Below, piece by piece: positions 124 to 59,565 of a stretch of 64,000 bases of DNA; position 1 is the first letter of the stretch; each line of letters begins with the position of its first letter. The translations under genes and the position numbers were made by a program. This DNA comes from a virus (Duplodnaviria; Caudoviricetes): IMG/VR virus record IMGVR_UViG_3300028888_000002. The stretch is one strand, 5' to 3'. Below the pieces are notes generated by a model. The model saw nothing but the letters and a program-made list of their open reading frames with translations, made no database searches and was not told where the DNA came from.

Positions 124-381
124 ATGGGTAAACTGAAAATACGTGTTAAAGAGTCCAACGGCACTCTTTTGGACAGCTTTGACGATTTAGCGTCGCTTTT
201 GAAATCTGCGGGTTCTAACCTTACAGGTCAGTTTAGTTTGCGGGATTCCGTTTATAACATTCAAAACGGTGGAAAGACGCTAGACACTCCCAAAGCAGTT
301 AAGGCACAACTGCTTAAAAAGCGGGAGCATATTGAAGCTGCGTTTGATAAAGTGTTTAGTGCGTTGGACGCTTATCTGTAA
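124..381 (+). CDS. Putative internal head (cargo) protein, tag A
   Basis: GAGG RBS then ATG 124; N-terminus MGKLKIRVKE-S matches the shared tag. Confidence 0.7.
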   Translation: MGKLKIRVKESNGTLLDSFDDLASLLKSAGSNLTGQFSLRDSVYNIQNGGKTLDTPKAVKAQLLKKREHIEAAFDKVFSALDAYL

Positions 382-392
382 ACGGGGGCACT

Positions 393-1010
393 ATGGCATT
401 GCGAATTAAAATCCACGAAAGCAGGCAGGCAGAAGCACAGGGTCTTGTGTTCCTGCCCGAAGATTTGAAGTCCGAACTTGAATTTGAGCTGCCGACGCTT
501 TACACCGCCAAAGGTCTTGCAGTGTTCAAGGGTAAGGAAGAAGTTGAACCCGACGCAGCCTGGGACGTTGAAAATATGTCCTGGGACGTTGACGAAGCCA
601 CGGTGAGCGGTAACTATCTTATGGTGGCGTTGACCGACAATATCGGTGCCGATGCTGTCAAGTCCGTTATGGCTGAAGACTACAAGAAAGCCGTGCTTCC
701 CGAAGCCCTGGAACTTGTAGCCTACCTGGACGTTGAAGCCCTGCGTGAAGCCTTTGGCTCCCAGGTCGTTGACGCTACAAAGGGTAAGGATTGCGAACTC
801 AATTACTACCTGGGCGACATTAACGATATGCGTGACGTTCCTGGTGGAATTGATAACGCATACACCGACGATGGTGAAGTTAGCTGTATGGTCGGTGCGT
901 TCGGTTTCAGCGTGGCAGAAGCTATTAACGGTAGCGAAATCAAGGACACGCAGTCCTCGGACGAAGCCGTGAAGTTGGTTGAAGAACTGTATAACAAATA
1001 CAAGTCGTAG
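393..1010 (+). CDS. Acidic putative internal head (cargo) protein, tag A
   Basis: N-terminus MALRIKIHE-S; D/E-rich body; GGGGG RBS. Confidence 0.75.
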   Translation: MALRIKIHESRQAEAQGLVFLPEDLKSELEFELPTLYTAKGLAVFKGKEEVEPDAAWDVENMSWDVDEATVSGNYLMVALTDNIGADAVKSVMAEDYKKAVLPEALELVAYLDVEALREAFGSQVVDATKGKDCELNYYLGDINDMRDVPGGIDNAYTDDGEVSCMVGAFGFSVAEAINGSEIKDTQSSDEAVKLVEELYNKYKS

Positions 1011-1051
1011 TTCAAAATTACTATACTTGTAAAAAAAAATGGAGTTGCAAT

Positions 1052-1750
1052 ATGGCATTCACCTGTTCTATGCAGAAGAAAATTGAGTCGTTCAAAAAGA
1101 ACGAATCCGCAGCGGGTCGTAAATTCTACGACGAATTTATTGAACCCCGTGCCCGTGAAATTCTTGAAGAATACGACGTGAACGAAGCCCAGGGCGGTAT
1201 GTGCGATTATTGGTATAACATCGGTGACGGTGTTGAAGATATGGAGCGTGACGACCGTAGTGGCTTTTTCTCTTATAACGACGGTGGCGTTCAAAAGACC
1301 TGGATGACTACTCCGTTTATGCTTGCGGGCGGTGGCTATCTTGACCCGAAGACGGAACCCGAATATGACCGCCTCCGTAAGAACTGCGAAGACGACTATC
1401 GTGAAGAATGCGAAAAGAACGGGGTTGAGTGCGATTTCAGTTCCGAAGAATACTACGAATTTGAAGACGCTTGGTCCTCGGAAGGTCTTGAAATTTTCGC
1501 TTATGCGGAAATTATGCTTTACAGCCGTAATTCCGACCGTGACGAATATACGCTTATTGCCCGTATCAGTCGTAGTTTTGACTACACCTACGGTCGTAAC
1601 CCGCAGGACGATTTGAACATTGAAATGGATTTGACTTCGGAACAGTTCACGAAGGAAAATGCAGACAAGTTCTTCGCTGCCGTGGAAGAGGCTTTTGCCA
1701 ACTATTCGTTTAGCCAGGGCGACAAGGAAATTAACGTCAAGGCAGATTAA
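1052..1750 (+). CDS. Acidic putative internal head (cargo) protein, tag B
   Basis: N-terminus MAFTCSMQKKIESFKKNE-S; GGAG RBS; very D/E-rich. Confidence 0.75.
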   Translation: MAFTCSMQKKIESFKKNESAAGRKFYDEFIEPRAREILEEYDVNEAQGGMCDYWYNIGDGVEDMERDDRSGFFSYNDGGVQKTWMTTPFMLAGGGYLDPKTEPEYDRLRKNCEDDYREECEKNGVECDFSSEEYYEFEDAWSSEGLEIFAYAEIMLYSRNSDRDEYTLIARISRSFDYTYGRNPQDDLNIEMDLTSEQFTKENADKFFAAVEEAFANYSFSQGDKEINVKAD

Positions 1751-1774
1751 GTCTGCAAAGGAAAGGTAAACACT

Positions 1775-2926
1775 ATGGCACTTAAACAGATTACTGCCAA
1801 AGATTTTAAGGATGCCGTTAGCAGTCTTACAAACGGCTACACCTGTTGGCATAAGTTACTCGGTCGCACCGACGCAGGCACGGAATTAGTTTTCGTGATT
1901 GGTTGGTCCGACGCAGGTTACGACGAAGACGACGCAAAGCAAAACGGATATGCCGATGGTAGATATACTATTTGCTCCAAGATTGCGTGTCAGTCCCGAT
2001 ATAACGGTAGTCAATCCGACTACGACGGTGACTTTGAAATGCCGTATGACAAGGAAACAGGCGACGTTTGGGACACTGACACTATGGTGTCTAACAACGA
2101 ATCCGATTGGGAAACCGACGCAGCTACTTACAACAAGGACGCACAGGCTATTTGGGACACCTACTGTGTCCCCGATGAAGACGGTTTCACTGCGTTAGAC
2201 GCTTTGTTTGAGTCCAAGAAATCGTCCGAAGCAAAGAAGCATACCTGTTCTATGCAGAAGAAAAAGGAAAGCCTTGCAAAGAAGACTGAAATGGTTCGTC
2301 CCGAAGACCCCGACGAACTTAAAGTTGGAAAATACACGGCAGACGTTTTGACCGCAGACGGTGATTTTATCTTGTCATTGCCCGCTTTCTATGACGACGT
2401 TGCTGAAACTGTCAAGGCTGCAAAGGACTACTTGCAGGAAGAATCCGATTATGTTAAGGACACAGGTCTTGTTCCTAGCAAAATCCACGTAACTACGGTT
2501 GTTGCTAAACGTGGTTGGAATATGCCACAGTTCGTTAAGGACGTTGACTTGAACGCTACCGAAGCGAAGAAGCCTGTTTGCTCTATGCAGAAGAAAAAGG
2601 AAAGCCTTTCTGCGAAGAAGTCCAAGAAGTGCGAAGGCTTGATGGACGACTTGCCGTATGACGCACCCGTAGCCATTGAAAGTCTGTGTGCCGAAATTAT
2701 GAGCCACACCGACGCATTTACCATTGAAGACGCAGACGTGGCTGAAATGTGCGGTAAGTGGTATATTCGTGATTACGCAAATGGTTCTACCGCAGCACAT
2801 AACGAAGACGAATTTGTTGACGAAGTTCTTGCAGGTCTTTCGGGCAGTCCCGTGGACGGCTCCCCGTTCGGTGCAGCCGAAGCCGAAGGATATGCTAGGA
2901 AGATTTACAACGAAGTCGTTGCTTAA
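1775..2926 (+). CDS. Three-module putative cargo polyprotein with two internal tag B copies
   Basis: Linkers FESKKSSEAKKHTCSMQKKKESLAKKTE and EAKKPVCSMQKKKESLSAKKSKKCE separate acidic domains. Confidence 0.75.
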   Translation: MALKQITAKDFKDAVSSLTNGYTCWHKLLGRTDAGTELVFVIGWSDAGYDEDDAKQNGYADGRYTICSKIACQSRYNGSQSDYDGDFEMPYDKETGDVWDTDTMVSNNESDWETDAATYNKDAQAIWDTYCVPDEDGFTALDALFESKKSSEAKKHTCSMQKKKESLAKKTEMVRPEDPDELKVGKYTADVLTADGDFILSLPAFYDDVAETVKAAKDYLQEESDYVKDTGLVPSKIHVTTVVAKRGWNMPQFVKDVDLNATEAKKPVCSMQKKKESLSAKKSKKCEGLMDDLPYDAPVAIESLCAEIMSHTDAFTIEDADVAEMCGKWYIRDYANGSTAAHNEDEFVDEVLAGLSGSPVDGSPFGAAEAEGYARKIYNEVVA

Positions 2927-2952
2927 AGAAATCCTACGACAAAATTATCAAG

Positions 2953-2979
2953 GTGCCCCGATTGTTCGGGGCACTTTTT
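2953..2979 (+). terminator. Rho-independent terminator
   Basis: GTGCCCCGA-ttgt-TCGGGGCAC followed by T tract. Confidence 0.8.
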
Positions 2980-3007: not shown

Positions 3008-3075
3008 AATATAATAGATTACCTAATTTATATAACAAATTACCTACAACATATAACTAGGTAACTTGTTATATT
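3008..3075. promoter_or_regulatory. Cluster of three TAGGTAA(T/C)(T/C)T(G/A)TTATAT boxes (two reverse, one forward) upstream of head genes
   Basis: Reverse copies about 3008-3025 and 3029-3046, forward copy 3058-3075; same motif as the early promoter spacer/-10. Confidence 0.65.
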
Positions 3076-3274: not shown

Positions 3275-3772
3275 ATGCTTAAATTCCGTAAGAAACTCCG
3301 TGAAGACGACAATATCGTTGAAGTTGGCGACGTTAAGTTGGACGCTAAAGAATCCGAAGTCGTGTTCGCAGACAAAGACAAGGACATCCAGGTTGTCGTT
3401 TCCCCCGACCCCGAAAACGAAAACTCTGTGACCGTCGCAGTTCTTTCTAACTCCAACGACGACGTGGAAGACGAAGAAGTTCTCGGCTCCGCTTCCGTTG
3501 AAGGTAGTGAAGATAAAGGTGCTGAAGAATCCCGCAAGGCTGCTCGTCGTGAGGCATTCCGTAAGCGTCTTGAAGCCCGTCGTTCTGCAAAGAAGTCCCC
3601 CGCACCCGCCCGTAACGAGGCTCGTGTCCAGGCTTTCCGCAAGCGACTTGAAGCCCGTCGTGCTGCAAAGCAAGCAGAAGGTAAGACTTCTACTTCCACA
3701 GCCGATGCCCGTAAAAAGGCTATCGGTGAAGCAAGGGCAAAATTCCGTTCCAAGATTGGCAAGAAAGCCTAA
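3275..3772 (+). CDS. Probable prohead core/scaffolding protein
   Basis: Immediately upstream of MCP; AGGAG RBS before ATG 3275; acidic N half, basic repeated EAFRKRLEARR helices; N-terminus MLKFRKKLRE-D. Confidence 0.6.
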   Translation: MLKFRKKLREDDNIVEVGDVKLDAKESEVVFADKDKDIQVVVSPDPENENSVTVAVLSNSNDDVEDEEVLGSASVEGSEDKGAEESRKAARREAFRKRLEARRSAKKSPAPARNEARVQAFRKRLEARRAAKQAEGKTSTSTADARKKAIGEARAKFRSKIGKKA

Positions 3773-3790: not shown

Positions 3791-5440
3791 ATGAAGACTT
3801 CTGTTGAAGAAATGTCCAATCAGAAATACAACCGCCTCGTAGAAAGCTACGAAGCCCGTTACAGCAAGCAGTTTGAAGCACTTGCAAAGTCCCCGTCGTT
3901 CAAGGGCACCTTGTCCAAGAACGCTATGTTCAACCTCGGTCAGCAGATGGACAACTACAAGCGTTACGAAAGTTTCGTGAACGAAAATTCCTCGGCTTCT
4001 AGCCTGGGTGTGTTGCCCCGTGTTGCTCTTGACCTTATTTCCGCTACCTACGCACTTTCTATCGCTCCGCAGCTTGCAAGTGTGCAGACGCTTGAAGAAT
4101 CCCAGGGTCTTATCTACTTCAAGAAGACCTTTACCCACGGCTATCCGCTGACTGCACAGGAAGGACTTCAGCAGCTCCCCGAAGACCGTTGGATGGGTGC
4201 CGACGGCAAGTTTGAAGGCGACAAGACCTTTGCGGGTGCTTGGAAGAAGTGGCTTGACACCCGTGGTCGTCCCGCTGACAGTGGCGAAGGTGACTTGGAT
4301 GCTGCTACTCTCGCTGCCAAGAACTTTGACGCTGTGACTTTCACCGCCCTCAAGGGTTGGCAGGCTTCCCCGACTGCATATATGTCCGAACGTCAGTTCG
4401 CTATTGCAGCCGACGGCAAGGCTACCATTAAGTATGGTGTTGGCAATCTTCGTTGGAACACCCCGATTAACGTCCGTCTTGTTGACAAGAACGGCAACAT
4501 TGAAGACATTGTTGGTGTCTGTGGTGGTCCTGGTCAGCTCCCGACCTTCTACGGTAAGTTGTCTGTTACCGCTGCTGCTGTTGGTCCCGACCTTGTTCTT
4601 ACCATTCCGACAGGCTACCAGGGTGGCGTGACTTATGACGTTGACTTTGAAAAGGCTCCCGACGTTCCTGCTATTGAATACGCTCTTGACAACAAGGTTG
4701 TCAGTGCCGAAATCATTGGCTTGAAGGAAATGATGGGCACGTTCAAGTCTTTCCAATTCAACAAGCGTTTTGGTAAGGCTGCGTCCGACGAAGTTCTTGC
4801 TGACCTTACGGGTCATATGGCTATGGCTGAAAGCGAAAAGATTCTTGCAGCCTACGTCCGTTGTGCTAACAAGTGGAAGCCGATTACCTGGAATCTTAAC
4901 AAGACCGCAGGTATCAGCGAATTTGAACACCGTCAGTCTTTCCTGTATGCTATCCAGGCTGCTTCTGCTGCTATCGGTAGCCGTGCAGGTAAGGGTCACG
5001 CCAACAAGATTGTCGCAGGTTACGTCGCTTGTCAGTATATTGCGTCCCTCCCTGGTTTCCGTCTTGCTCCGCAGACGAACCTTGTTGGTCCGCACGTCTA
5101 TGGCACTCTTGAAAACGAAGGCATTACTGTTATTCGCTCCAACACTATCGTGGCTCCGAACGAAGTTATCTGTGCTTACAGCTCCGACAACAGCCCGTTT
5201 GAAGCACCTGTCGTGTGTGCAACGTATATGCCTGTGTTCTTGACCGACACTATGCCTGTCGCAGACAATCCGTTCCAAACGCAGCGAGCAATCGCTTCCT
5301 GGAAGGCGATTGAACCTGTCGTGGCTGAATTTGTGCAGCGTATCGTTATCACGAAGGATGCCGAAGCACCTGCCGACGTGAACGTGTTCCTTACTACCAC
5401 CCCGAACGGTGGCAGCGGTAGCGGTTCTAGCAACGGCTAA
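3791..5440 (+). CDS. Major capsid protein, T4 gp23-like
   Basis: 549 aa; segment LISATYALSIAPQLASVQTLEESQGLIYFKK parallels the gp23 MVRR..NLIA.DI.GVQPM..PTG.VF region; C-terminal ATYMPV..DNPFQ..AIAS; likely propeptide ending FVNE; strong codon bias; terminator follows. Confidence 0.85.
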   Translation: MKTSVEEMSNQKYNRLVESYEARYSKQFEALAKSPSFKGTLSKNAMFNLGQQMDNYKRYESFVNENSSASSLGVLPRVALDLISATYALSIAPQLASVQTLEESQGLIYFKKTFTHGYPLTAQEGLQQLPEDRWMGADGKFEGDKTFAGAWKKWLDTRGRPADSGEGDLDAATLAAKNFDAVTFTALKGWQASPTAYMSERQFAIAADGKATIKYGVGNLRWNTPINVRLVDKNGNIEDIVGVCGGPGQLPTFYGKLSVTAAAVGPDLVLTIPTGYQGGVTYDVDFEKAPDVPAIEYALDNKVVSAEIIGLKEMMGTFKSFQFNKRFGKAASDEVLADLTGHMAMAESEKILAAYVRCANKWKPITWNLNKTAGISEFEHRQSFLYAIQAASAAIGSRAGKGHANKIVAGYVACQYIASLPGFRLAPQTNLVGPHVYGTLENEGITVIRSNTIVAPNEVICAYSSDNSPFEAPVVCATYMPVFLTDTMPVADNPFQTQRAIASWKAIEPVVAEFVQRIVITKDAEAPADVNVFLTTTPNGGSGSGSSNG

Positions 5441-5735: not shown

Positions 5736-6686
5736 ATGTCTAACAAGAAATTCAAGATTACCGTTAAAGAAAGCAAGAAGTCCGAGGGTCTTCCCCCGAA
5801 GCGTTTGGGCAGCAAGCGTCAATATCGTTCCCGTGCGGACCTTATTAACAAGATGAAGCAACTCGGAGCCGTGGAAATCACGACTAGCAAGCAGTTCAAC
5901 GACATTAAGAACTCGCAGTGGCTCCATACCGCAGGTTACGCCCTTGACACCAACGGCAACCTTGTGGCACAGTCCTACTACGGTGACAAGGACGGCAAGT
6001 GGTATTACACTTCCACCCGCAACTTTGATAGCGACTACCTTCCCGAAAGCAAGCAGCACGAAAACCGCACAAAGGAAGAAGAAGTCACTAATATCTTTAA
6101 GGGTATGAAAGAATGGGCTACCAAGTGGTCCAACTCCGACAAGGACCGCAAGACCATTGCAGACAATCTTGACCTTGAAGCAGTCCAGGAAAATATGTCC
6201 GATATTGTTGAAATTTTGGACAATAACTTTGAATGGGACGGTTACGGGTTTAAGTTCGTTGTGGTTGGCGATTACGAAGACGACGACACCCGTGACGAAG
6301 CCGAAGCAAATCAGTGGAACAGTTGCTATGGCGTTTGTGAAGAAATTGCAGACCTTATAGGCATTCCCAATGAAGGTCACGTTATTGGTGAAATGAATAC
6401 CTATTTTTGGGAAGACATTGAAGCGGTTTGGCGTGACGACGAAAGCAAGAAATCCGAAAGCCTTTCGCTCAAACAGAAAGAACTTAAAGATATGGCACGT
6501 TACGGTGAAGCCGAAGACATTACTACCATATCCGACGCAGAAGCAAAGGAACTTCGCAAGAAGGGCATTGAAACGGTGGGTGTTAGCCGTGGGACCTACG
6601 GAATGAACGGTGCCTTGCTCCGTGACAAGGACGGCAAGAAATACGTGATTACCGCCCGCAGCTCTAACCTGTTCTACTTTGTATAG
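5736..6686 (+). CDS. Three-module putative cargo polyprotein, tag A
   Basis: MSNKKFKITVKE-SKKSE-G; internal linkers LPESKQHE and DDESKKSES; modules 1 and 3 resemble each other. Confidence 0.8.
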   Translation: MSNKKFKITVKESKKSEGLPPKRLGSKRQYRSRADLINKMKQLGAVEITTSKQFNDIKNSQWLHTAGYALDTNGNLVAQSYYGDKDGKWYYTSTRNFDSDYLPESKQHENRTKEEEVTNIFKGMKEWATKWSNSDKDRKTIADNLDLEAVQENMSDIVEILDNNFEWDGYGFKFVVVGDYEDDDTRDEAEANQWNSCYGVCEEIADLIGIPNEGHVIGEMNTYFWEDIEAVWRDDESKKSESLSLKQKELKDMARYGEAEDITTISDAEAKELRKKGIETVGVSRGTYGMNGALLRDKDGKKYVITARSSNLFYFV

Positions 6687-7616
6687 AATTTTTTAAATAA
6701 AGGAAAAACTCTTATGACTAAAACATTCACCTGCTCTATGCAGAAAAAGAAAGAAAGTTTTGCGAAGAAGTCCGAAGCAGCCGAAATCAAGGACAAGCAG
6801 TATTACCTTGATATGTTTGACAAGGCATACAAGGAATGCGTCCAACTTGACATTGACAATGGCGGTAATGGCGAGGGTTGGGCAGATTACTTTACCGACA
6901 CAAAAAATTATGGGGATTTCACTCAAAAAGAAGCCGACGAAATTGTTGGCTATTATATGGAGTTCCACCCCGAAGCCGATGAGGAACCCGATAGACCTTA
7001 CAGGGATTGGTTGGATAATACGAGGGGTCTTGAACTTACTCCGTTGGACAAGGAAATCACCCGTATCTTGAAAGCCCTGTATGCCCCTAATGAATCCACG
7101 AAGTCCGAAGGCGTTGAAGCCTTGAAAGACAAGGTTGTGTCCGACGGCACCTTGAAGCCCGAAGACCTTATTCCGAAGTTCCTTAATGCCTTGAAGCACG
7201 ACGAAACTGCTCACTCCAAGTTCTTGAAGGACTATCCCGAAATCCTTGAAATTCAGTCCTGGGACGACGTGGACGACGAAACGAAGTCTATGCTTGTGGA
7301 CGAACTTACCGACGCACTTAACGGTATTGCACCCGACGGATATTTCTTTGGTGCGTCCGATGGCGACGGAGCCTGCTTCGGCTTTTGGAAGGTTGACCCC
7401 GACGAAAGCAAGAAGTCCGAGGGTGCGAATGCCCTACCAACTAAAGAAGAAATGAAACGTGTGGTTGACGGTTTAAAAAAAGGCTATGTCCACCCAAAGT
7501 GTTGCTGTCCGATAAAAACTCCAAAAAATGGCTAAAAACAGCATTTAACCCACAGACCCCATAAATTGCTATATTTGTATTGAAAAAATATAGTTTAATG
7601 GGTAGAACATAACTCA

Positions 7617-8595: not shown

Positions 8596-9651
8596 TTATG
8601 CCGCCAACGGCAGAGGAATAGGCGGACGGAACATATAAGTCCACTTTGAACCATCGTAGATGGCCTCAGCATTATGGCGTTCCCATACAGATTCCTTGAA
8701 GTTGAAATCACCATCGGCGTAGTTGCGAAGATTATGCCATACCAAGTAGTTGTTGAGATACTTGGTAGCAACTCCGTGGAAGCGTTCCATGAATGTCTTT
8801 AGTTGACTATGATAGCCGTTGATGTGCTGGATTCCCAGCGTGCCACTGACACGCTGGGTAGATTTTAACTGCAATAGGTTGATGCCTTCCCGTTCCGCAA
8901 ACCCTACATACGCATTGTGCTTGTCGGTGCATAGAACCGCATCCGGTGAGATACGACCGGCGAACACGCTGGAAATGCTCCGCACCGATGCACGACCCAA
9001 GTTCGCAATCTGTGCGATGGACTTGCCGTCACGGTTGACCGCACACGGCACACATACCTTTTCCAATGAAATACCACGCTTTTTGGAGCGTTCGCCTCTC
9101 ATGTGAGGCTCACGGGGCATACTGAAGAACTGGCTCCGACTATGGTTACCCTTGAATGAAATACGGAAGAAGGTCTCGTCCGCTTCCACGATGCCATCCA
9201 GTTTCACCTTGGACTGCATTTCTTGCAGAGCATCCAGAATCTTGTGGCGGAGGAAGAAGGCGGCGTTCTTGGAAATACGGCACTCATAAGCCGTTGCCCT
9301 GACCGTCATACCGTGCATCATACAATGCACATAGCGGAGATAGGTGTCAAGCGGCAGCTTGGCTCCATGGAAGATGGTGCGGGTCGCATAGGTGAATGAC
9401 TTACCGCAACCCTTGCATTGAAACCGCTGGTGCCCGGTCTTGGTCTTGCCGTTCTTCTTGACATCCACTAGACCACAATGCGGACAGCACACGCCATTGT
9501 GGAAGCGGTACTTACCAAGGAACTCTTCCATCGTGGATGAGTCGATGATTTCGGTCATCTGCGGAGGCATGCCGAGCATCTGCATGAAGCGCATCTTGTC
9601 CGATTTGGACAAGGTGTTGTACATCTGGTAAACAAGATTTACTTCGGACAT
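8596..9651 (-). CDS. tnp: IS1595-family transposase
   Basis: Zn ribbon CPHCG..CKGC, HTH region, LDGIVEADETFF, LCTDKHNAY, IQHINGYHSQLK (N in place of the last E), RFHGVATKYLNNYL; AGGAGG RBS before ATG 9651. Confidence 0.93.
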   Translation of the reverse strand: MSEVNLVYQMYNTLSKSDKMRFMQMLGMPPQMTEIIDSSTMEEFLGKYRFHNGVCCPHCGLVDVKKNGKTKTGHQRFQCKGCGKSFTYATRTIFHGAKLPLDTYLRYVHCMMHGMTVRATAYECRISKNAAFFLRHKILDALQEMQSKVKLDGIVEADETFFRISFKGNHSRSQFFSMPREPHMRGERSKKRGISLEKVCVPCAVNRDGKSIAQIANLGRASVRSISSVFAGRISPDAVLCTDKHNAYVGFAEREGINLLQLKSTQRVSGTLGIQHINGYHSQLKTFMERFHGVATKYLNNYLVWHNLRNYADGDFNFKESVWERHNAEAIYDGSKWTYMFRPPIPLPLAA

Positions 9652-10421
9652 AAGACCTCCTTCTATAATGGAAATATAGCAAAACAGGAGTGTCATTTTA
9701 TGTCAATAGCAAACCCCTATGTAAAGCTTGGATTACATAGGGGTGAAATGGCAAAATTGGACTAATTTCAGCGATTTTTCAGACCAGCAACACTTTGGGT
9801 GGACATAGCCTTAAAAAAAGACAAGGCTTTCTCTCGTCGTTATTCCGTTGATGATAGCGTTTTGTATGGTGCTATTGATTCGGAGTGGTCGCCTGTTATG
9901 TCTATCAAGGATAAAAAGACAGGTAAGACTTACGCTACTATCTTGTTTGACGGGGATGGTAAAATTCGTATTAACGGATTTCCGTCTTCCCCGATTGAGG
10001 GGGATAGTTCCGATATAGATTGGATTTTGGAAGTTTTGCGTAATAAGAAGCCGTCCGAATCCAAAAAGTCCGAAGGCGTTGGTGGCAAAATCAAAATGGG
10101 CATTGACTACAATATGTTTATGCGTATGTGTGCGTCCGCAGCCTATCTTGACGAAAACGAAGACTATTGGGACGCTCTTTGGGAATACTATTCCGAAATG
10201 GGCGAAATTGAAGACGCTTGTGAGTTCTTTGATAACTTGTTCCAATACACGTCCTGGTGCGACGAAGACGAAGTGTATGACGAATACCTGGACGATTCGT
10301 ATAAGGACGGCACAAAGAGCAAGGCTGAATGTATTGAAGCTGCCGTTGACGCAGGCGACCTTGACGTTTTTAAGACGGACAAGGGCTATCTTGTAATTCA
10401 GTAACAACCCGTGAAATGCAG

Positions 10422-11230: not shown

Positions 11231-12049
11231 ATGGCTAAAATGAAAATCAAGGTCCACGAAAGAAATTCCGATAATGACCCGCAGCGTTTCTACGATAAAT
11301 TGAACCCTGTTGAAAAGAGCCGTTTTGACGGGCTTGCCGACACGGTTGAAGCCCTGGTTGGTGTGTTTGATGAAAACGGGAAACTGTCTAAACCGCAGCA
11401 AGACCAACTCAAGGAAGCCAGGGACACAATTTACGTGTTTGGCTATGCAGCCAGGGGCTATGTAAGTCTTGCCGACGAAGTTCTTGCCAACTATGGCGTG
11501 GAACCTTTGCTTGACCCGAACGAACCTGTCTTTGGCGAATCCAAAAAGAACGAAGACACCGACGACGCAGCCGAAGCACTCGCAAAGGAACTAGGGGTTT
11601 CTGTTGACAAGGTTTCGGATAGCTCCCAGGACTATGACTATTATGAACCCGATTACACGTATGACGTTGAATTGACGAACGGCAAGACTGCTACTTACCT
11701 TGTGTATGATAATCAGCAGTCTGCTATTGACGCTGCTGCGGACGATTTGGGTGAACGTTTCCACGATGACAGTAGCATACTTGGGGCAGCTATTGAATAC
11801 TTCGGCTTCGGGACGCTTTCCGATTATTTGAACGGATATGACGACGACGAAATGGCTGAACTTGAAAGTCTTTGTGACGACGTGAGTTCCGAAGAATTTG
11901 CACGTATGTTGCAGCAGAAGGGCGGTGTGGATTACCGTGGGTTTGCTGAATACAACATAGGCGAACTTGGGGCTGCTTGGCACCTTGCCGATTATGACAA
12001 CAAAGAAGTTGAACTTGAAAACGGTATGCTCGCATATCGTGTAGATTAA
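11231..12049 (+). CDS. Two-module putative cargo polyprotein, tag A
   Basis: MAKMKIKVHE-R; linker FGESKKNED; acidic second domain ending HLADYDNKEVELENGMLAYRVD. Confidence 0.78.
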   Translation: MAKMKIKVHERNSDNDPQRFYDKLNPVEKSRFDGLADTVEALVGVFDENGKLSKPQQDQLKEARDTIYVFGYAARGYVSLADEVLANYGVEPLLDPNEPVFGESKKNEDTDDAAEALAKELGVSVDKVSDSSQDYDYYEPDYTYDVELTNGKTATYLVYDNQQSAIDAAADDLGERFHDDSSILGAAIEYFGFGTLSDYLNGYDDDEMAELESLCDDVSSEEFARMLQQKGGVDYRGFAEYNIGELGAAWHLADYDNKEVELENGMLAYRVD

Positions 12050-12061: not shown

Positions 12062-13567
12062 ATGTCTTTGAAAATCAAAACACACAAGTTTGAAAGCCGT
12101 GTAGCCCCCGCTGCACAGCGTCGTCCGTTTGGTCGTATGGCTGAATCCAAAAAGTCCGAAGCTACAAGTTTCGGTGCGGGTATGTCTAAACGCACGGACC
12201 TGTCCAAAATGCGTAATTTGGGTGAAGTCATAGACGTTCTTGAAGAACACAAGAAACTTATGGAAAACAAGGCAAAGGATTTGTCGCAAAGCAAGGAAGA
12301 CTTGCAGGCTGCGATTAAGTCCCTTAACGAATTTTCCAAACACGTCCTGTTCTTGAAGCAGCAGTCCGTAAAGGGTATCAAGGACGCACTCACGTTCAAC
12401 AAGTCCCCCGAAGTCAAGGCTGCTGCCGATATTGAAAAGCACTTGAAGAATGCTCTTAAAATCCTTTACTCCGATTATGAGAACATTCCCGATGTTACTC
12501 AACTGCTGACAGTTGTTGACAGTCGTTATGCTACCCGTGGTGACAAGGTTGTGACCGCCTGGGTTGACAATGCGACCCGTGCTATTGAAGTGGACGCAAA
12601 GACGATTAAGGACAGCATCGCTGCGGGCGATATGTCCGAAGACGACGTTGTGAAACTTGTGACGGTTACTTACGCTACCCACGGTGTCAAGAACAAGGAC
12701 ACCGTTGAAAAGGTAACGCCCGTCCTTGAACGTATGAACGCTTTGCTTGCTTCGGCTCCGAAGATTGAAGAAGCGGTCATTGACCCGAAGGAATTTAAGG
12801 AACTCCGTGACCTTGTGGAACAGATTGTTAAGGAAGCGTCCGAACCGACGCTTACTGTCAAGACTGCTATCACTACGCTTTCAAAGGGCGAACTCGCAAC
12901 CGTCCCGTCCGAAGCGTTTGTGTCCGAGGGTCTGCTTGACAAACTCAAAGACCTTGTGGCTTCTCTCAAGGACAAGATTTCGTCCCTGTGGAACTCGTTT
13001 ACTTCCCTGTTCTTCAACCTGGAAGACGAAGCCCTTGAATCGGCTGAAACGTTTGCCGAAGTTGAAGAAGGCTTTGCCATTATGGGCATTGTCGTTGAAT
13101 CCTACGTCGCAAAGAGTGTTCCGCTCGGCAAGCAGTTTGAAGTCCTTACGAAGTCCGTGCTTCACTGCTGCGATAAACTTGTCAAGGACGCTTCCCTTGC
13201 GGGCGAATTTGACGACGAAGTGATTTACGCAGAAGAAGCCGTCAATAATGCCGTTGAGTCGTTCCAGGCTCTCGGTGAAGCCTGCAAGACTTTGAAGAAC
13301 GCATTGTCGTATCACAAAAACGAAGACAATATGAACGTTATCGGTATTCTTGCGGACGCTATCACGCAGATTGTGAACGACGACAATGGCAGTGCCGATA
13401 CGGAAGGTGGCGACGACTCCGAAGACGACGAAAATCCTGTAATCCGTGACGTTGAAAAGGAATATAGCCCCGCAGGTGGCGAGGGCGGTGAAGAAGGTCC
13501 CGAAGCGAACGGTGGCGAGAACGAAGCCCCGAACCCCGCTGAAATGGGCGAACCCGAAACGTTCTAG
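12062..13567 (+). CDS. Large helical putative head-internal protein, tag A
   Basis: MSLKIKTHKFE-S, MAESKKSEA linker, SEGLLDKLKD motif, acidic low-complexity tail. Confidence 0.75.
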   Translation: MSLKIKTHKFESRVAPAAQRRPFGRMAESKKSEATSFGAGMSKRTDLSKMRNLGEVIDVLEEHKKLMENKAKDLSQSKEDLQAAIKSLNEFSKHVLFLKQQSVKGIKDALTFNKSPEVKAAADIEKHLKNALKILYSDYENIPDVTQLLTVVDSRYATRGDKVVTAWVDNATRAIEVDAKTIKDSIAAGDMSEDDVVKLVTVTYATHGVKNKDTVEKVTPVLERMNALLASAPKIEEAVIDPKEFKELRDLVEQIVKEASEPTLTVKTAITTLSKGELATVPSEAFVSEGLLDKLKDLVASLKDKISSLWNSFTSLFFNLEDEALESAETFAEVEEGFAIMGIVVESYVAKSVPLGKQFEVLTKSVLHCCDKLVKDASLAGEFDDEVIYAEEAVNNAVESFQALGEACKTLKNALSYHKNEDNMNVIGILADAITQIVNDDNGSADTEGGDDSEDDENPVIRDVEKEYSPAGGEGGEEGPEANGGENEAPNPAEMGEPETF

Positions 13568-15208: not shown

Positions 15209-17473
15209 ATGCCGATAAATGATAGTGCAGGTGTAGGTGTTTACCTTATTGACAAGTCGCAGCGTTCTTCTGTCGCTATCGGTTTCCGTTCTGCGGGTGC
15301 CATTGAAGCAGACAGGGGACTGTGTAACAAGCCAACCTTGATTTCTAGCGAAGACGACTACGTTAAGGCGTTTGGCACTCCGTCTATGGAGCGTCACGGT
15401 CTTGCTGCTATGGAAGCATATTTGCTCGCACAGCGTAAGGTCCCGCAGGTTCTCGTCCGTGCAAAGGACCCGACAATGCTCCCGTCGGACACCCCGTTCG
15501 GAGCTATGAAGTTTACCGTGGAAGACGGCAAGTTGGTCGTGAACACGATGCTTCCCGCTATTGCGATTGCTTCCCCAGGCGAGGGTATGGACAATGAATC
15601 CTACCTTTACTTTAAGGGCGAAGGCGATTACTGCTCCAAAGAACGCAAGAACGTTGTCGTTCGTTTGAGCCAACCTGTCACGCAGTCTGCTTACGCAAAG
15701 GAAGGTCGTTCCGTCCGTGTGCAGTTGTTTGACTTCAACGGTTCCAACCATATTGACGAAGACGTTCCCGCAGAACTCGCATTCAACCCCGACGTTGCTA
15801 ACTTGATTTCTGCTACGGGCGATTTCAAGTTGGACGGCTTCCTGGTTGGTTCCGCTGCGGGCAGTGACGCAGGTGCTTCGGGCGAACACCCCGTAAAGAT
15901 TACCGCTTTCGTGAACGGTCGTGTTTACAATATGCCCGAATTTGATTATTCGTCTTTGTTTGACGGTTCCGATTGGGGTATGTTTGATAAGTTCGCCCAG
16001 GCTGCGAAGGGTGCTACCTACGCAGACGGTGAGCCTGTCATTGAAGAAGATTGGGACACCCCGCTTGTTTATACCCCTGGTGTGGGTGTGGAAGGTTCGG
16101 GTTCCGACGAAAACGAAAAGTATGGCGTGTATTACCTGTATTCGGGTAAGGACGGTGGACCGCAGAAACTCAACTGCTTCGGTCTGTCCATTTCCCTTAC
16201 GGCTACCGTGGAACTCCCGATTGCCGAAGACCCGACTTCTACCCGTAAACTCGCCCCTGGCTTCTATGGCTATCCGTGCGGTAGCGTGACGGTTGCGAAG
16301 AAGGGTGACGGTTACGTTGCGAAGTTCAACATTAGCACGAACCTTTACCTCAAGAACCGCAGCACCTATATGTTTATGGGTGAGCAAAATGAGTATTGGG
16401 CTTCCTACTACAAGACCTACTGCGTGAATGACTTCGTGGTGTCTATGTCTTACGACGACTTTGATTCCAACTACGTGTCTATGCAGATGGACGCTGTAAT
16501 GGGCGGTTCCAAATACCTTGTTCCGAAGTCTAGCCAAATCTTTGGCGACTACACCATTGATTACGGACACGACGACATTACGAACAAGCTGCACTACTTT
16601 GAGGGTATGATTAAGGCTAACACCATTCCTATGCAGAACAAGTCCTACGCTTACTCGCAGGCACTTCAAGTTTTGCTTGGGGACAACCTTACCCGTTGGC
16701 GTTGTTTGGCTACCCCGAACCTGGGTGACGTTATGAACCCTGCGGATTACATTTCCGCTATCACGTCGTCTAACGAAGCAACTCTCGGCTTGTCTAACAT
16801 TGGTCGTGCTGCTGCTACGGACGTGTTCGGAAATCTTACGGGTCGTCACGGCAACCGCTTTATTGCCGACTACTGTCAGTATGCTTACCGCACTCTTGCG
16901 GGCAAGCGGACCGCAGTCACTATGGCTTGCCTTGTCGCAGACTTGCTCAACAGCCATTACAACGACGGTATTGAAGCACGTCCCCCGTTTGGTTACAACT
17001 ACGGTCAAATCGCTTGCTTGTCCTTGTCGCAGCAGTTTAGCGGACCCGAACGCAATATGCTTGCAAGACAGCTCAAGATTAACCCTGTTGTTGAAGACGG
17101 TGGTTACTACATTTGGGAAGAACGCACGTCGCAGCTTACCGACACGTCCTTGTCCGACGTTCATTGTATCATTTCGTTCCTGTGGATGAAGTTCGCTATC
17201 TATGACGCTATGAAGTCTTTTGTGGCTGAATACAACGACCAATCTACGGTGGACCGTGGTCTTGCAGTTCTCGGTCAGTTGAACCAAAACTTCATTGACA
17301 AGAACTACATTGAAGAAGGCATTGTAAGTGCCGACAAGAACGTTATCGGTGACGAAGTGCTTCGCTTTGACTACGCAATCCGCTTCAAGGGCGTTGCCCG
17401 TTTCGTGGACGTTTATATCACCGCATACAGTCAAACGCAGACTTTGGCTGTGTCGCTCGCACAGGAGGCTTAA
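15209..17473 (+). CDS. Contractile tail sheath protein
   Basis: N-terminal AGVGVYLIDKS, KPTLISSEDDYVKAFGTP; C-terminal LKINPVV..YIWEERT..FVAEYND sheath domain. Confidence 0.88.
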   Translation: MPINDSAGVGVYLIDKSQRSSVAIGFRSAGAIEADRGLCNKPTLISSEDDYVKAFGTPSMERHGLAAMEAYLLAQRKVPQVLVRAKDPTMLPSDTPFGAMKFTVEDGKLVVNTMLPAIAIASPGEGMDNESYLYFKGEGDYCSKERKNVVVRLSQPVTQSAYAKEGRSVRVQLFDFNGSNHIDEDVPAELAFNPDVANLISATGDFKLDGFLVGSAAGSDAGASGEHPVKITAFVNGRVYNMPEFDYSSLFDGSDWGMFDKFAQAAKGATYADGEPVIEEDWDTPLVYTPGVGVEGSGSDENEKYGVYYLYSGKDGGPQKLNCFGLSISLTATVELPIAEDPTSTRKLAPGFYGYPCGSVTVAKKGDGYVAKFNISTNLYLKNRSTYMFMGEQNEYWASYYKTYCVNDFVVSMSYDDFDSNYVSMQMDAVMGGSKYLVPKSSQIFGDYTIDYGHDDITNKLHYFEGMIKANTIPMQNKSYAYSQALQVLLGDNLTRWRCLATPNLGDVMNPADYISAITSSNEATLGLSNIGRAAATDVFGNLTGRHGNRFIADYCQYAYRTLAGKRTAVTMACLVADLLNSHYNDGIEARPPFGYNYGQIACLSLSQQFSGPERNMLARQLKINPVVEDGGYYIWEERTSQLTDTSLSDVHCIISFLWMKFAIYDAMKSFVAEYNDQSTVDRGLAVLGQLNQNFIDKNYIEEGIVSADKNVIGDEVLRFDYAIRFKGVARFVDVYITAYSQTQTLAVSLAQEA

Positions 17474-24380: not shown

Positions 24381-25121
24381 ATGTCTTTGAAGATACGACT
24401 TCACGAATCAAGCGTGACCCGCATTATGTCACACTTGAAGAACTACGACTGCGGGACCATTACTGCGTTCCGTGGAACCTGTGCAAACGCTACGGACAAC
24501 ACCCTGGATTCCGTCAAGGAATACGAGGGTAAGTCTATCCCGCTTTCTGTAAAGAAGCAGTGGAACCGTGACTTGAAAGCAGCCCTGCTCAAGTTGGGCT
24601 ACGGTGTGACCGCTATCAAGGGTCGCTACCGTGAAGACGGTTGGGACACCGCTTCGGATGAAGAATCGTTCTTTGTCGTGAACCTTACCGACGACCCCGA
24701 CTTTATCAAGAATATGGCTCGCCTGGGCGAAGCCTACAACCAGGATAGCATCTTGATTAAGGAAAAGGGCAGCGACAACGCCTACCTGTTGGGAACCAAC
24801 ACTAGCGAGGGTGACTTTGACCCCGCCCTGGGCGAAACGCAGGACATTGGTAAGCTGCACGTAAATATCCCGTTGGACTACCTGGGTGCTTCGTCCGTTA
24901 TCGGTAACAAGGCATTCATTTTCAAGGGTGACGACGATGGCAAGAACGAAGCCAACGGCAATCCGTTTTCGCTTGACACGTTCTTTGCTTATGGCAATTA
25001 CAGTAAGAGCGGTATTGCCCAACGTGCGAAGCCCGTGTTGGAAGCCCTGGGTCTGCCGACAAGTCGCCCGATAGCTGCATATAAGCAGGCGTTGGACGCT
25101 TCCCTGTCTTTCAATAAGTAG
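24381..25121 (+). CDS. DUF3293-like protein with tag A (putative cargo)
   Basis: MSLKIRLHE-SS; GTITAFR..NRDLKAAL..GY..IKGRYRE..EESFFV..GEAYNQDSIL motifs. Confidence 0.7.
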   Translation: MSLKIRLHESSVTRIMSHLKNYDCGTITAFRGTCANATDNTLDSVKEYEGKSIPLSVKKQWNRDLKAALLKLGYGVTAIKGRYREDGWDTASDEESFFVVNLTDDPDFIKNMARLGEAYNQDSILIKEKGSDNAYLLGTNTSEGDFDPALGETQDIGKLHVNIPLDYLGASSVIGNKAFIFKGDDDGKNEANGNPFSLDTFFAYGNYSKSGIAQRAKPVLEALGLPTSRPIAAYKQALDASLSFNK

Positions 25122-51643: not shown

Positions 51644-53038
51644 ATGTCTAAATTGACTATCAAGAACAACCCCGTCCAGGAAGCAACTGAACCCGCTGCC
51701 TTTGGCAAGGCTTACCAAGATTTCGTCAATCGTTGTTGGACGGACCATAAGCCTAACTATTCCGTAAACGCAATCAACTTCCTCCTGGACTGTGCCCACA
51801 TTGCCAACGGCACTAGCGTAAAGGGCTTGCCACAGCAGGGCTTCAAACTGACCAAAGCGGGCAACGTGGATATTGTTGGGGACTGCCTGCACTTGTGCTA
51901 TAACGAAGTCAATGGCAAGAAAGCTGTTGATATTTGGCTTAATCCCCATACGCAGAAAGCCCTCGTTGACCTTTACGGCTTCAACCCCGAAGACCCGTAT
52001 AATTCCACGCATAAAGAATTTTCTGCCCGTGACTACACGTCCGATGACTTCTGCGAATTTATTGAGAATTTGCCGAACTACAAGGGCGAATCCAAAACGG
52101 CTGAATCCCGTAAGTTGACTATCCGTGTTCACGAAGCCAAAGAAACCCTCCAGGACCGCTTCGGTTCGTTCCAGGATTTCCAGGATTACTGCAACGGTAA
52201 GGTCCACGATAAACTTGTGGAGCTTCTAGGCGAAGAACAGGGCGACACCTGCTTCCGTGAAATTACTCAACCCGAACTGACCTACAAGGACAAGCGGGGT
52301 CATAAACTCGTCCATAAGAACGACAACCCTACCCATCTTAATGTTCTGCAAGAATGGTGGAAGCAGAATTTTGCTGCCGACGACCTGGACGGCTGCTGCG
52401 ATTCTCTTGCCGATGGCTATGCACAGGACCCGAAACCTATTCGTATCGTTACTCCCCGCAGGGGCAAGGACGTTACGGACAAATGGAAACTCCAACGTGA
52501 ATCCAAAAAGTCCGAAGCTGCCGACGAACAGGTGGAACACGGTGAGGAATGCCACTTGTTCATTGAAGACGACCCGAACTACCAGGTATCGTTCCGCAGC
52601 GATAACGGTCACGTTTACACGTTCTACGTGCGAGCCGACGACCCGCAGGACGCTCTTGACAGGGCATATCACGAATTTGGCGTGAACTACAATATGTCTA
52701 TCAAGGGCGAAGCCCACAGTGAAAGTGACATTCCGCAGGGCGAGGAAGCAGTTGAAGTGGGAACAAAGTATGCCCCGAAGGTGAACGTCGCTGTTGACCC
52801 GTGGGACGGCAAGGGCGTTCGTGTCCTTTATATCCCCGAAATCTATTTGTCCTATATCGTAAACGGGGACCCTAGCGGTATGGAAGAAGAAGACATAGCC
52901 GACTGCGACAAGTTCGTGGACCGCTATGTTAAGAAGGGATATGATATGGCTTCTGTGTTCCCCGTATGCGGACCGCAGGGCGAATGGTGGGACCAAAACG
53001 TTCAAGGCGACGTGCTTTGTTCCACTACGGTTGACTAA
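51644..53038 (+). CDS. Multi-module putative cargo polyprotein (tag A-like start, internal tag A)
   Basis: MSKLTIKNNPVQE-A; KGESKTAESRKLTIRVHE-A; QRESKKSEA; last module IPE.YLSYIVNGD.SG.EEEDI. Confidence 0.78.
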   Translation: MSKLTIKNNPVQEATEPAAFGKAYQDFVNRCWTDHKPNYSVNAINFLLDCAHIANGTSVKGLPQQGFKLTKAGNVDIVGDCLHLCYNEVNGKKAVDIWLNPHTQKALVDLYGFNPEDPYNSTHKEFSARDYTSDDFCEFIENLPNYKGESKTAESRKLTIRVHEAKETLQDRFGSFQDFQDYCNGKVHDKLVELLGEEQGDTCFREITQPELTYKDKRGHKLVHKNDNPTHLNVLQEWWKQNFAADDLDGCCDSLADGYAQDPKPIRIVTPRRGKDVTDKWKLQRESKKSEAADEQVEHGEECHLFIEDDPNYQVSFRSDNGHVYTFYVRADDPQDALDRAYHEFGVNYNMSIKGEAHSESDIPQGEEAVEVGTKYAPKVNVAVDPWDGKGVRVLYIPEIYLSYIVNGDPSGMEEEDIADCDKFVDRYVKKGYDMASVFPVCGPQGEWWDQNVQGDVLCSTTVD

Positions 53039-57609: not shown

Positions 57610-57639
57610 TAATTGCCCAATAAAGGAAACAAATTACCT

Positions 57640-58309: not shown

Positions 58310-58368
58310 CCGAAAGGGCGTTTCCGTCCCGCAACCCCTAACACCCGTAAAAATTTTATGAATACCTG

Positions 58369-58397
58369 TTGACAATACGCAGGTATTTTCTTATATT
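58369..58397 (+). promoter_or_regulatory. Early promoter P11
   Basis: TTGACA-17-TATATT; AATACCTG/CAGGTATT inverted repeat. Confidence 0.85.
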
Positions 58398-58434
58398 ATG
58401 CCCAGGAACACAGCCACAGCCGAGGAAACACCCT

Positions 58435-58635
58435 ATGAAAACACCGTATTGGCAAATTACCGTTGACACCCCACGCTACGGACACTCTAACAGCGTCCTT
58501 GAACACGACCCCGACAAGGCGAAGGCTGCTTTCTTTGAGCAGGCGAAGTCCCTAATCGCAGGACAGACCGCCTACCTATACAGTGTGGACGAATGCGGTT
58601 TCGTCCGTCCCGAATACACCGTCACCCGAAAATAA
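58435..58635 (+). CDS. Small hypothetical protein
   Basis: CCGAGGA RBS. Confidence 0.68.
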   Translation: MKTPYWQITVDTPRYGHSNSVLEHDPDKAKAAFFEQAKSLIAGQTAYLYSVDECGFVRPEYTVTRK

Positions 58636-58687
58636 CCTATATTTACTACCGTATATTCCCCAACTATTTCCAAAGAGGAAACACCCT

Positions 58688-59074
58688 ATGCCCTACAAAT
58701 TCAAAATCAAGACCCACGAAGCCCGATACAACAGCGATGCCGACCTGTTTGACCAACTCTACGCCCAAAGCCAGGAACTCCGCAAATGGCGTAAAGGCGA
58801 ACTCCCGTTCAAGAAAGCCACGGGTGCCATTATCAAGGCTCTCTCACGTCGCATCGGTCCCCGAACCGCACACACCGCTTTCAAGAGCCGTGGCGTGAAA
58901 GACAGCTACGACTACCTTATGGCTAACTGTATGGCTGAATACGCTGCCGTCGCCTGCCTGGACAAAGGCGAAGACTTCATCAAGTCTTTCCTGGACGACA
59001 AGTCCCAAACACTCCCGAACGACGTGTGGGACAAGGCTGCAAAGCAGTGGATTGACGACGCAAAGGACCTGTAA
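58688..59074 (+). CDS. Putative cargo protein, tag A
   Basis: MPYKFKIKTHE-A after GAGGA RBS. Confidence 0.75.
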   Translation: MPYKFKIKTHEARYNSDADLFDQLYAQSQELRKWRKGELPFKKATGAIIKALSRRIGPRTAHTAFKSRGVKDSYDYLMANCMAEYAAVACLDKGEDFIKSFLDDKSQTLPNDVWDKAAKQWIDDAKDL

Positions 59075-59103
59075 TACATTCAACACAAAAGGAACCCAAA
59101 CCT

Positions 59104-59565
59104 ATGTCTAGCAAACTCAAAATCAAACTCCACGAAGATAACGGGTCCTACACGCATAACGTCTTCACCATCTTTTCCGTGAGCGTGGACGTTCACCAGG
59201 CTTACCCCGACAAGGGCGAAAGTCCGAAGGCTTCCAACGGTCGCCACTTCAAGGAACTCGTTGACAAGCAATACGACAGCATTTCACAAGCCATTACTGC
59301 CGTGGATTCTACGCATATCTTCGCCCGCCCCGATTGGACCGCCACAGAATACCGCTTCGGCATTCTTCGCCTGGAAGCCGTAGTCCTCGTCGGGAAGCGT
59401 AACGAACCCGTCTATGGCGAAGACGTGGAAGCCTGGAAGCGTGGCGAAAAAACCCTGTGGAACGCCCATTACAAAGTGGGTATTCGCTGCGAACAGTCCA
59501 CGACGCTGCCCGATGCCGAACTCACGTCCGAACTTGACGATATGGCTATTGAACACAGCTTCTAA
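59104..59565 (+). CDS. Putative cargo protein, tag A
   Basis: MSSKLKIKLHE-D; body paralogous to 44715..45143. Confidence 0.75.
   Translation: MSSKLKIKLHEDNGSYTHNVFTIFSVSVDVHQAYPDKGESPKASNGRHFKELVDKQYDSISQAITAVDSTHIFARPDWTATEYRFGILRLEAVVLVGKRNEPVYGEDVEAWKRGEKTLWNAHYKVGIRCEQSTTLPDAELTSELDDMAIEHSF

Follow-up and report, generated by a model that had tools for sequence, protein, structure and literature searches.

Results

A short N-terminal tag is shared by unrelated proteins

In a stretch of 64,000 nucleotides (IMG/VR record IMGVR_UViG_3300028888_000002, called the window below) from an uncultured jumbo myovirus of the ruminant gut, whose head is of the T4 type, nine genes encode proteins that start with the same short and basic leader, tag A, which is followed by bodies of very different sequence. 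This shared leader is far from chance. Tag A is probably a capsid-targeting propeptide of this lineage's own, which would dock its carriers in the assembling head and would then be removed by the prohead protease. The evidence comes from the anatomy of the tag, its exchange between close relatives, and the head genes among which many tagged genes are found. The nine tagged genes of the window are as follows.

124..381, + strand, tagged protein, 85 aa; tag MGKLKIRVKE (124-153), then S
393..1010, + strand, tagged head-module protein, 205 aa; tag MALRIKIHE (393-419), then S
5736..6686, + strand, tagged multi-module protein, 316 aa; tag MSNKKFKITVKE (5736-5771), then S
11231..12049, + strand, tagged two-module protein, 272 aa; tag MAKMKIKVHE (11231-11260), then R
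12062..13567, + strand, tagged protein conserved in the clade, 501 aa; gapped tag MSLKIKTHKFE (12062-12094), then S
24381..25121, + strand, tagged SAM-lyase-like protein, 246 aa; tag MSLKIRLHE (24381-24407), then S
51644..53038, + strand, tagged three-module protein, 464 aa; tag MSKLTIKNNPVQE (51644-51682), then A
58688..59074, + strand, tagged protein, 128 aa; tag MPYKFKIKTHE (58688-58720), then A
59104..59565, + strand, tagged protein, 153 aa; tag MSSKLKIKLHE (59104-59136), then D

Genes are named below by their first position. The initial annotation of this DNA had quoted the nine N-termini, an internal copy of the tag and a looser version at the start of a scaffold candidate. All nine N-termini translate to the residue as stated, and the internal copy (SRKLTIRVHE-A, at 52109) and the scaffold start (MLKFRKKLRE-D, 3275) also read as claimed. 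The internal copy, RKLTIRVHE at 52109-52135 followed by A, lies in the 51644 protein. A Shine-Dalgarno-like GGAG or AGGA is present upstream of eight of the nine genes, gene 393 being the one without it.

Close relatives of the phage were found in IMG/VR, among them two near-complete contigs of about 215 kb, G001 (215,686 bp; its major capsid protein (MCP) is 93% identical) and G002 (83%). Both were fetched whole and scanned in six frames. A degenerate regular expression had 19 matches in G001, and 17 of them start 2-5 residues after the Met of an open reading frame (ORF) on the + strand. In addition, a scoring matrix of 10 columns was built from the tags of the window and of G001, while G002 was left out of the building. 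The scores were bimodal. At least 19 bits were reached by 18 matches in G001 and by 8 each in the window and in G002, and the reversed-sequence controls peaked at 9-13 bits with a maximum of 13.2. All matches of at least 19 bits were N-terminal, save the one internal copy, and G002 has also weaker, gapped variants. Across the three genomes tag A was found at about 40 protein starts and at one internal position. About 20 genes per genome are tagged, which is roughly 7% of the proteins of a 215-kb phage.

Relatives with an MCP identity of 72% retain the tag in the forms MKITIHE-A, MLKIRVHE-R and MSKMTIKVRE-S. When IMG/VR was scanned for DNA encoding MKIKVHE, the motif was found after M-x-K/N in this clade only; the other 11 matches were unrelated ORFs or short frames merely containing the motif.

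Anatomy of the tag and of the tagged bodies

The anatomy was counted over 39 tags from the three genomes, P1 being the last residue of the tag and P1' the residue that follows it. The consensus is M-[SGA]-[KN]-[LM]-[KT]-I-[KR]-[VL]-H-E, and the length varies between 8 and 13 residues with a mode of 10 (19 tags of 10 residues, 12 of 11). The description of the tag as a basic strand ending in Glu was confirmed, because P1 is Glu in 39 of 39 tags and polar and hydrophobic residues alternate. P2 is His in 27 tags, and P3 is V (22), L (9), T (4), I (3) or K (1). Further upstream, K or R is found at P4 in 32 tags, Ile at P5 in 35, K (27) or T (8) at P6, and L, M, F or I at P7 in 38. The P1' residue is S in 17 and A in 6 of the 39 cases.

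The bodies were analyzed by BLASTP of 28 tag-trimmed proteins from the window and G001. Three ortholog pairs were the only similarities, so that the bodies are indeed unrelated, as had been proposed. They are acidic, with a median isoelectric point (pI) of 4.6 and values below 6 for 33 of the 39. PHROG and Pfam scans yielded nothing above the curated cut-offs for most of the tagged bodies, and for the 501-aa protein (12062) no match was found in the ESM Atlas. Most of the tagged bodies of the window are without a tagged homolog in G001, despite the 93% identity of the MCPs. The 393 protein has tagged orthologs in the related contigs L001, L002, L009 and L014. Orthologs of the 12062 protein (29-82% identity) retain a tag-like start, e.g., MSKMTIKNHTTES or MRITNHNIAEK. 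For the 59104 protein, a weak untagged homolog is encoded in G001 (194537-194923).

Exchange of tags, modules and cassettes

Comparison of the three genomes shows tag A to behave as a modular and apparently cleavable leader. Two further genes of the window are needed for this comparison.

1052..1750, + strand, tag B protein, 232 aa; starts MAFTCSMQKKIES...; its G001 ortholog has tag A
1775..2926, + strand, three-module protein, 383 aa; tag B present internally in two copies, plus an ESKK linker

Tag B (C-S-M-Q-K-K-[KI]-E-S) is found in the window at 1052, 2246, 2579, 6732 and 51186. The 1052 protein starts with tag B and reads MAFTCSMQKKIE/SFKKNE/SAAGRKFYDEF... (slashes mark junctions behind Glu). 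The G001 protein 151072, which starts MSKMKIRVHE/SSGSAGAKFYDSF, is 61% identical to positions 1109-1747 of the window (tblastn). The same body thus has tag A in G001 and tag B in the window, showing that the tags swap. Of the 16 copies of tag B in the three genomes, about 9-11 are N-terminal and about 5-7 are internal, and the ESKK linkers are internal. Tag A, in contrast, is N-terminal in a ratio of about 40:1, which fits a signal that needs a free N-terminus.

The linkers, (N/D/G)-E-S-K-K-S-E, join small acidic modules. They were observed in the window at 1775-2926, 5736-6686, 6714-7535, 9898-10404, 11231-12049 and 51644-53038, and in L001:12174-15971. In close relatives the modules recur in different polyproteins or as stand-alone tagged genes.

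Three cases could be followed between a fused and a stand-alone state. The first is the 5736 body, which is the C-terminal part of a 1265-aa polyprotein of G001 bearing six NESKKSE-type linkers. The junction reads ...IKANDE/SKQTEGLPPKKLG in G001 versus MSNKKFKITVKE/SKKSEGLPPKRLG in the window. In the second case, the first module of this body also forms the end of a 579-aa protein of G002 (...DASE/SCKSEALPPKQWG). The third case is the first module of the 11231 protein, which is an internal module of a 669-aa polyprotein of G002 (...NNEAKQCE/DVQYYYDRLNP). In all three cases the stand-alone version is tagged, and the Glu of the tag lies on the module boundary. Module 1 of the 51644 protein is a separate gene in G001 that starts MSKLTIKSRSVTE. 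For the 5736 and 11231 bodies, tag A takes the place of everything upstream of the E/S(K) junction that divides the polyprotein modules.

Eight consecutive tagged genes are found at 100.2-109 kb of G001. Against 189-197.5 kb of G002, synteny of this region (100-109 kb) extends over the flanks and two large genes, and in place of six small tagged genes G002 has three different ones that are also tagged. The tagged cluster is a hypervariable cassette locus, in which the leader is kept while the cargo is polymorphic. It resembles the polymorphic internal protein (IP) locus of T4 (PMC3012670).

The prohead protease and the head genes

The protease gene lies immediately 5' of the first tagged gene, and the scaffold candidate and the MCP follow a short distance downstream.

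2..109, + strand, prohead protease (S77 / T4 gp21 type), last 36 codons; the remainder lies upstream of the window
3275..3772, + strand, scaffold candidate, 165 aa; starts MLKFRKKLRE-D, directly before the MCP gene; assigned from composition and repeats
3791..5440, + strand, major capsid protein of the T4 Gp23 family, 549 aa; PF07068 E=2.2e-10 (above cut-off), PHROG 138 E=1.2e-8

By its profile matches, the lineage has a T4-type prohead protease. The frame-2 translation REQPAPQTFKVLEAK...YILGSR, followed by a stop, is the C-terminus of L001:4621-5658 (345 aa), which matches the PHROG 207 head maturation protease (E=1.6e-21); its match to Pfam Peptidase_S77 (E=2.5e-4) is under the curated cut-off (23 bits versus 27). 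An exhaustive HMMER search with the protease revealed 1810 relatives. A profile of 54 of these matches T4 gp21 (PDB 5JBL) with E=1.2e-7, and 41 of the 54 match PF03420 singly. Two residues without variation in the family, H87 and S141, fall on positions 85 and 140 of gp21 in the alignment. In the crystallised chain these are residues 104 and 159, both Ala; they are probably the catalytic pair, His and Ser, replaced in the inactive protein of the crystal. Other searches were less sensitive: neither a five-sequence profile nor single-sequence phmmer had a match in the PDB, and a six-frame Peptidase_S77 scan of whole relatives missed the protease. The chain carries ...VISE/SKKKE... directly after the catalytic domain, which recalls the C-terminal autoprocessing in gp21 and in SPN3US gp245.

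The scaffold function of the 3275 protein is that of a candidate, based on position, composition and repeats. An acidic, beta-rich half is followed by basic AFRKRLEARR repeats. The units, NEAR..AFRKRLEARRA, are present twice in the window and three times in L001 (9416-9979), L004 and L014, where the extra unit is N-terminal. The L007 scaffold candidate starts MVKTIKSRKLRED, resembling tag A. A complex prediction with the scaffold, the C-terminal domain of the protease (A1:190-345) and a 95-aa tagged protein had a score of 0.00, which speaks neither for nor against binding.

Between the protease and scaffold/MCP genes, the window has two genes with tag A and one with tag B. Within this interval G001 has three tag A genes (and one more just upstream of the protease), and G002 has four. 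Among cultured phages, the nearest MCPs have an identity of 25-29% (Rhizobium Kleczkowskaviridae and Acinetobacter Ab1); the head module of these phages has a protease-scaffold fusion, and the protease adjoins the MCP without genes between. No relative at the DNA level was found among 50,697 deposited phage genomes. The MCP gene is present in sheep, bovine, goat and pig gut metagenome and metatranscriptome runs; the MCP-bearing ruminant-gut DNA and RNA runs were contigs only and carry no timing of expression.

The protease and the module boundaries bear on an alternative to which we give a low probability, namely that the tag is a processing site and no address. It would be cut by the prohead protease or another Glu-specific protease, and the bodies would either reach the prohead by themselves or be proteins of the core or scaffold type that are chopped and expelled. 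The coincidence of the tag Glu with the E/S(K)K boundaries of the polyproteins is in line with this, as is the ISE/SKKKE sequence in the protease itself. Moreover, several tagged proteins are encoded where T4, by its gene order, has its degraded core proteins gp67 and gp68. However, a piece of 10 residues that is merely cut off would be purposeless on a stand-alone protein, and P4-P7 (K-I-K-L/M) are conserved like P1 and P3. Tag A is also almost never internal, while plain linkers and tag B often are, and modules gained the tag upon becoming stand-alone genes in three of three cases.

Location of tagged genes and promoters

Two types of promoters share an extended -10 element, GGTAWTTTGTTATATT. 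Sites are found in the window at 3066, 13900/13920, 23515, 25842, 27149, 31004, 35634, 38668, 42871, 46858, 50442, 53138, 58388 and 59684. In most of them the inverted repeat TACCT...AGGTA flanks a TTGACA, and the leader (ACAACCAC...AACCGAGGATA) is conserved. The second type, without a -35 element, precedes scaffold/MCP (3066), the sheath operon (tandem copies at 13900 and 13920) and the tagged cluster of G001 (100166). The common -35-less promoter ties the tagged cluster to the structural genes, as a pattern and not as a measurement.

An uncleaved strand that docks at another hub, for instance on the capsid surface or the tail, at a chaperone, in a compartment of the phage or on a target in the host, is the next alternative, and its probability is lower still. 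The alternating basic and hydrophobic pattern would suit beta-strand augmentation, and four tagged genes of the window lie in sigma70-type operons away from the structural genes. The invariant terminal Glu, the hydrophobic P3 and the E/S junction in common with the polyprotein linkers argue against this, as do the enrichment of tagged genes between protease and MCP and the presence of an S77 protease in the lineage.

The DNA level was also considered. The codons of the tag vary (AAA/AAG/CGT/CGA, CTG/TTG/CTC, GTT/GTC/GTG, GAA/GAG), the exchange of K and R being one of AAA/AAG versus CGT/CGA, and the DNA 5' of the tagged genes has nothing in common beyond the Shine-Dalgarno sequence. Because the codons differ and the upstream DNA is not conserved, selection acts on the peptide. 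An expression element instead of a functional peptide, i.e., a downstream box rich in AAA or the binding site of a regulatory protein or RNA, is therefore hardly credible: Lys codons AAA/AAG behind the start codon are known in general to promote initiation, but the RNA of the tag changes through synonymous and K/R codon exchanges that leave the peptide as it is, the genes have no upstream leader in common, and the copy at 52109 lies in-frame within a protein.

One cargo resembles the SAM lyase of phage T3

The 24381 protein matches PF23780 (S-AdoMet_lyase) with E=3.7e-12, above the cut-off. In the AlphaFold2 (AF2) model the predicted local distance difference test score (pLDDT) is 79, residues 1-9 score under 50, and helix 1 runs from residue 11 onwards. 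The low values for the tag and the start of the first helix behind it indicate that the tag is an appendage outside the fold. The best Foldseek matches are to the T3 S-adenosylmethionine (SAM) lyase (7OCK/8BB1; probability 1.0, template modelling (TM) score 0.61-0.67 by target), followed by 6ZM9. One cargo thus has the predicted fold of the T3 SAM lyase, and its sequence profile and fold both accord with the phage SAM lyases (T3 SAMase / Svi3-3 family). The T3 SAM lyase counters SAM-dependent restriction. If the 24381 protein is encapsidated, it would act before any phage gene is expressed.

Homologs with 39-45% identity keep the tag (MPLTIRLHE-S, MSLKIKVHE-S). A homolog with 62% identity, on a contig of a different phage type, starts MNESS and has no tag. 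Among 47 homologs from diverse contigs, a variable extension of 2-35 residues ends in E/S, with L or I at P3 in 39 of the 47. This [L/I]-x-E/S end equals the T4 gp21 logo, and it suggests that the whole SAM-lyase-like family may consist of protease-processed head proteins. In the examined stretch of the L029 contig, no other protein shares the N-terminal extension of the distant SAM-lyase-like homolog, and no tag is claimed there.

Several of the extensions share (I/L)xENWxxF(I/L)xE, which is reminiscent of the capsid-targeting sequence (CTS) of T4.

Further features of the window and its relatives

Long ORFs are nearly all on the + strand up to about 60 kb of the window. The tail sheath is a 754-aa protein (15209-17473; PHROG 23, E=1.7e-16). 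An IS1595-family transposase at 8596-9696 on the - strand (DDE_Tnp_IS1595 E=6.5e-11, plus a Zn ribbon) sits within the head/neck gene block and is the sole clear minus-strand gene of the first 60 kb. In G002 a 564-aa ORF with a Cas12f1-like TNB domain (L014:3022-4716; PF07282 E=2.2e-14; TnpB/Cas12f-like) belongs to the head module and lies just upstream of the protease; G001 has no such ORF at this place.

The protein of 539/579 aa encoded upstream of the protease was considered as portal and rejected: it has no Pfam or PHROG match, and a profile search for a T4-type portal found no Portal_T4 in G001 or G002. Its identity as portal would have placed a tag A module on a protein of the capsid interior in G002, and this claim was dropped. 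The 45 homologs (P0218-P0262) of L001:2651-4270 (539 aa) are restricted to the lineage, unannotated and 329-938 aa long. The family has a conserved core of about 330 aa and highly variable added modules.

The region 60000-64000 of the window has no long ORFs, no tRNAs and a raised GC content. C-rich tracts (CCCCCCGCCCCGCC) were observed around 63.6 kb, and similar ones near the contig end of G001 (212.4 and 214.8 kb). This end region may be a genome terminus or a packaging region.

Discussion

A capsid-targeting propeptide as the most probable explanation

The initial annotation had proposed that tag A is the packaging address of this lineage for a large injected payload. The packaging part of the proposal is supported by the Gp23-family MCP, the S77 protease, the geometry shared with the CTS/gp21 system, the modularity, and the clustering of tagged genes in the head module and the cassette locus. 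In the most probable scenario, docking and cleavage are joint functions of the tag. The basic amphipathic leader would bind a prohead-core component of the assembling head, and the scaffold candidate, whose N-terminal half is acidic and beta-rich, would be the obvious partner. To judge from the motif and the module junctions, the S77 protease would cut after the leader Glu and at the ESKK-type linkers, and the acidic modules would be freed within the shell. The mature, mostly acidic proteins would stay in the head with the DNA, and some modules, e.g., the SAM-lyase-like enzyme, may leave with the DNA at infection, by analogy with the T4 IPs. Injection itself, which was the second part of the proposal, has in our view a little less than an even chance.

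Several observations weigh against targeting and cleavage. Genes 24381, 51644, 58688 and 59104 are the last genes of operons with sigma70-like TTGACA promoters (23515, 50442 and 58388), and not of operons behind the -35-less promoters of the MCP and sheath genes. This counts against simple late co-expression of these four genes; if their operons are early, the tagged proteins are made before proheads exist. The leader has no sequence similarity to the T4 CTS (MKTYQEFIAE). A gp21 site would demand far less conservation of the His at P2 (27/39), of the Ile at P5 (35/39) and of the flanking lysines than is observed, and this surplus of conservation points to a binding role with an unspecified partner. 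The bodies are acidic (median pI 4.6), unlike the situation in T4, where IPII and IPIII are basic. In the SAM-lyase-like family E-S is kept even after only 2-4 residues, and the Glu may thus be structural instead of a cleavage site. Lastly, in an AF2 model of the protease from a five-sequence alignment, the catalytic (N-terminal) domain had a pLDDT below 50, and no fold comparison was possible.

A wider version of the targeting hypothesis is rather unlikely as a whole. According to it, the clade runs a delivery system of high capacity, in which tags A and B and the ESKKSE-type linkers load about 20 rapidly exchanged, mostly acidic proteins per genome into the head, partly from stand-alone cassettes and partly as modules strung in polyproteins; the proteins are trimmed by the S77 protease and injected as a pre-formed counter-defence arsenal that includes a SAM lyase.

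Significance

If the tag is a capsid address, about 7% of the phage genes encode particle-borne proteins, and the injected set is much larger and more modular than that of T4. A simple sequence rule would then pick out the proteins with which this uncultured clade, widespread in the guts of sheep, cattle and goats, makes its first strike. The tagged proteins would form a collection of candidate anti-defence factors, of which the enzyme with the SAM-lyase fold would be the first recognisable one, and foreign proteins could be packaged in large capsids with the tag, of some 10 residues, as a new handle. The swap of tags A and B and the interconversion of polyproteins and cassettes show the evolution of cargo repertoires. 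In the open-access literature no description was found of such a tag expansion in metagenomic jumbo phages.

Comparison with known systems

In T4, the proteins IPI, IPII, IPIII and Alt carry a CTS that is removed by gp21 (Mullaney & Black 1996; PMC9026906, PMC3012670). The internal proteins have N-terminal propeptides of 10-19 residues that lend them affinity to the prohead core, foreign proteins are packaged when they bear no more than the first 10 residues of IPIII, and Asp at position 10 of the CTS blocks cleavage while targeting is kept (PMC9026906, PMC3012670, PMC5694885). Residues 4 and 7 matter for targeting, and residues 8 and 10 (P3 and P1) for the processing by gp21 (PMC9026906). In T-even phages the IP genes are polymorphic, the CTS alone being conserved (PMC9026906, PMC3012670, PMC5694885).

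At the level of sequence, tag A is like the T4 CTS in being an N-terminal leader of about 10 residues on unrelated bodies, with a final Glu and a hydrophobic P3. A Gp23-type MCP and an S77 protease are also in common, as are tagged genes in or near the head module and in a polymorphic locus, and a diverse, fast-changing cargo that includes a likely anti-restriction enzyme. Every feature of sequence and context of the T4 CTS/IP system that could be checked thus appears to have its counterpart here, except the homology of the leader. The leader is a basic K-I-K-V-H strand, in contrast to the acidic and aromatic MKTYQEFIAE, and M-S-K-M-K-I-K-V-H-E has in common with it only the initial Met, an early basic residue and the final Glu. 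Further differences are the number of tagged genes (about 20 per genome versus a handful), the acidic cargo, the second, interchangeable tag B, and the presence of the modules also in ESKKSE-linked polyproteins; in addition, the system described here is known from sequence alone.

In phiKZ, 201phi2-1 and SPN3US, head and ejection proteins are cut by proteases of the gp175/gp245 type (PMC5694885, PMC10052503). The motif of the phiKZ/SPN3US type is S/A/G-x-E, and the propeptides have mostly more than 100 residues (PMC5694885). As in these phages, a jumbo phage would process many internal head proteins after Glu, at multiple sites per protein, and the SPN3US paralogs gp53 and gp54, which share identical N-termini, can be likened to the tag A proteins. 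However, P3 is V/L/I/T and the leader has about 10 aa, which is nearer to T4, and tag A does not fall within the phiKZ/SPN3US type. Homology to the phiKZ/SPN3US cargo was not detected.

The cargo-loading peptides of encapsulins are a further parallel, since in both cases a short peptide would address unrelated cargo into a shell of the HK97 fold. Encapsulin peptides are usually C-terminal and uncleaved, and they bind the shell protein directly.

Taken together, the distinct leader, the scale of about 20 genes, the exchangeability with tag B, and the conversion of cassettes into polyprotein modules and back are new here. A delivery system of the kind outlined above would, if true, go far beyond the three internal proteins of T4.

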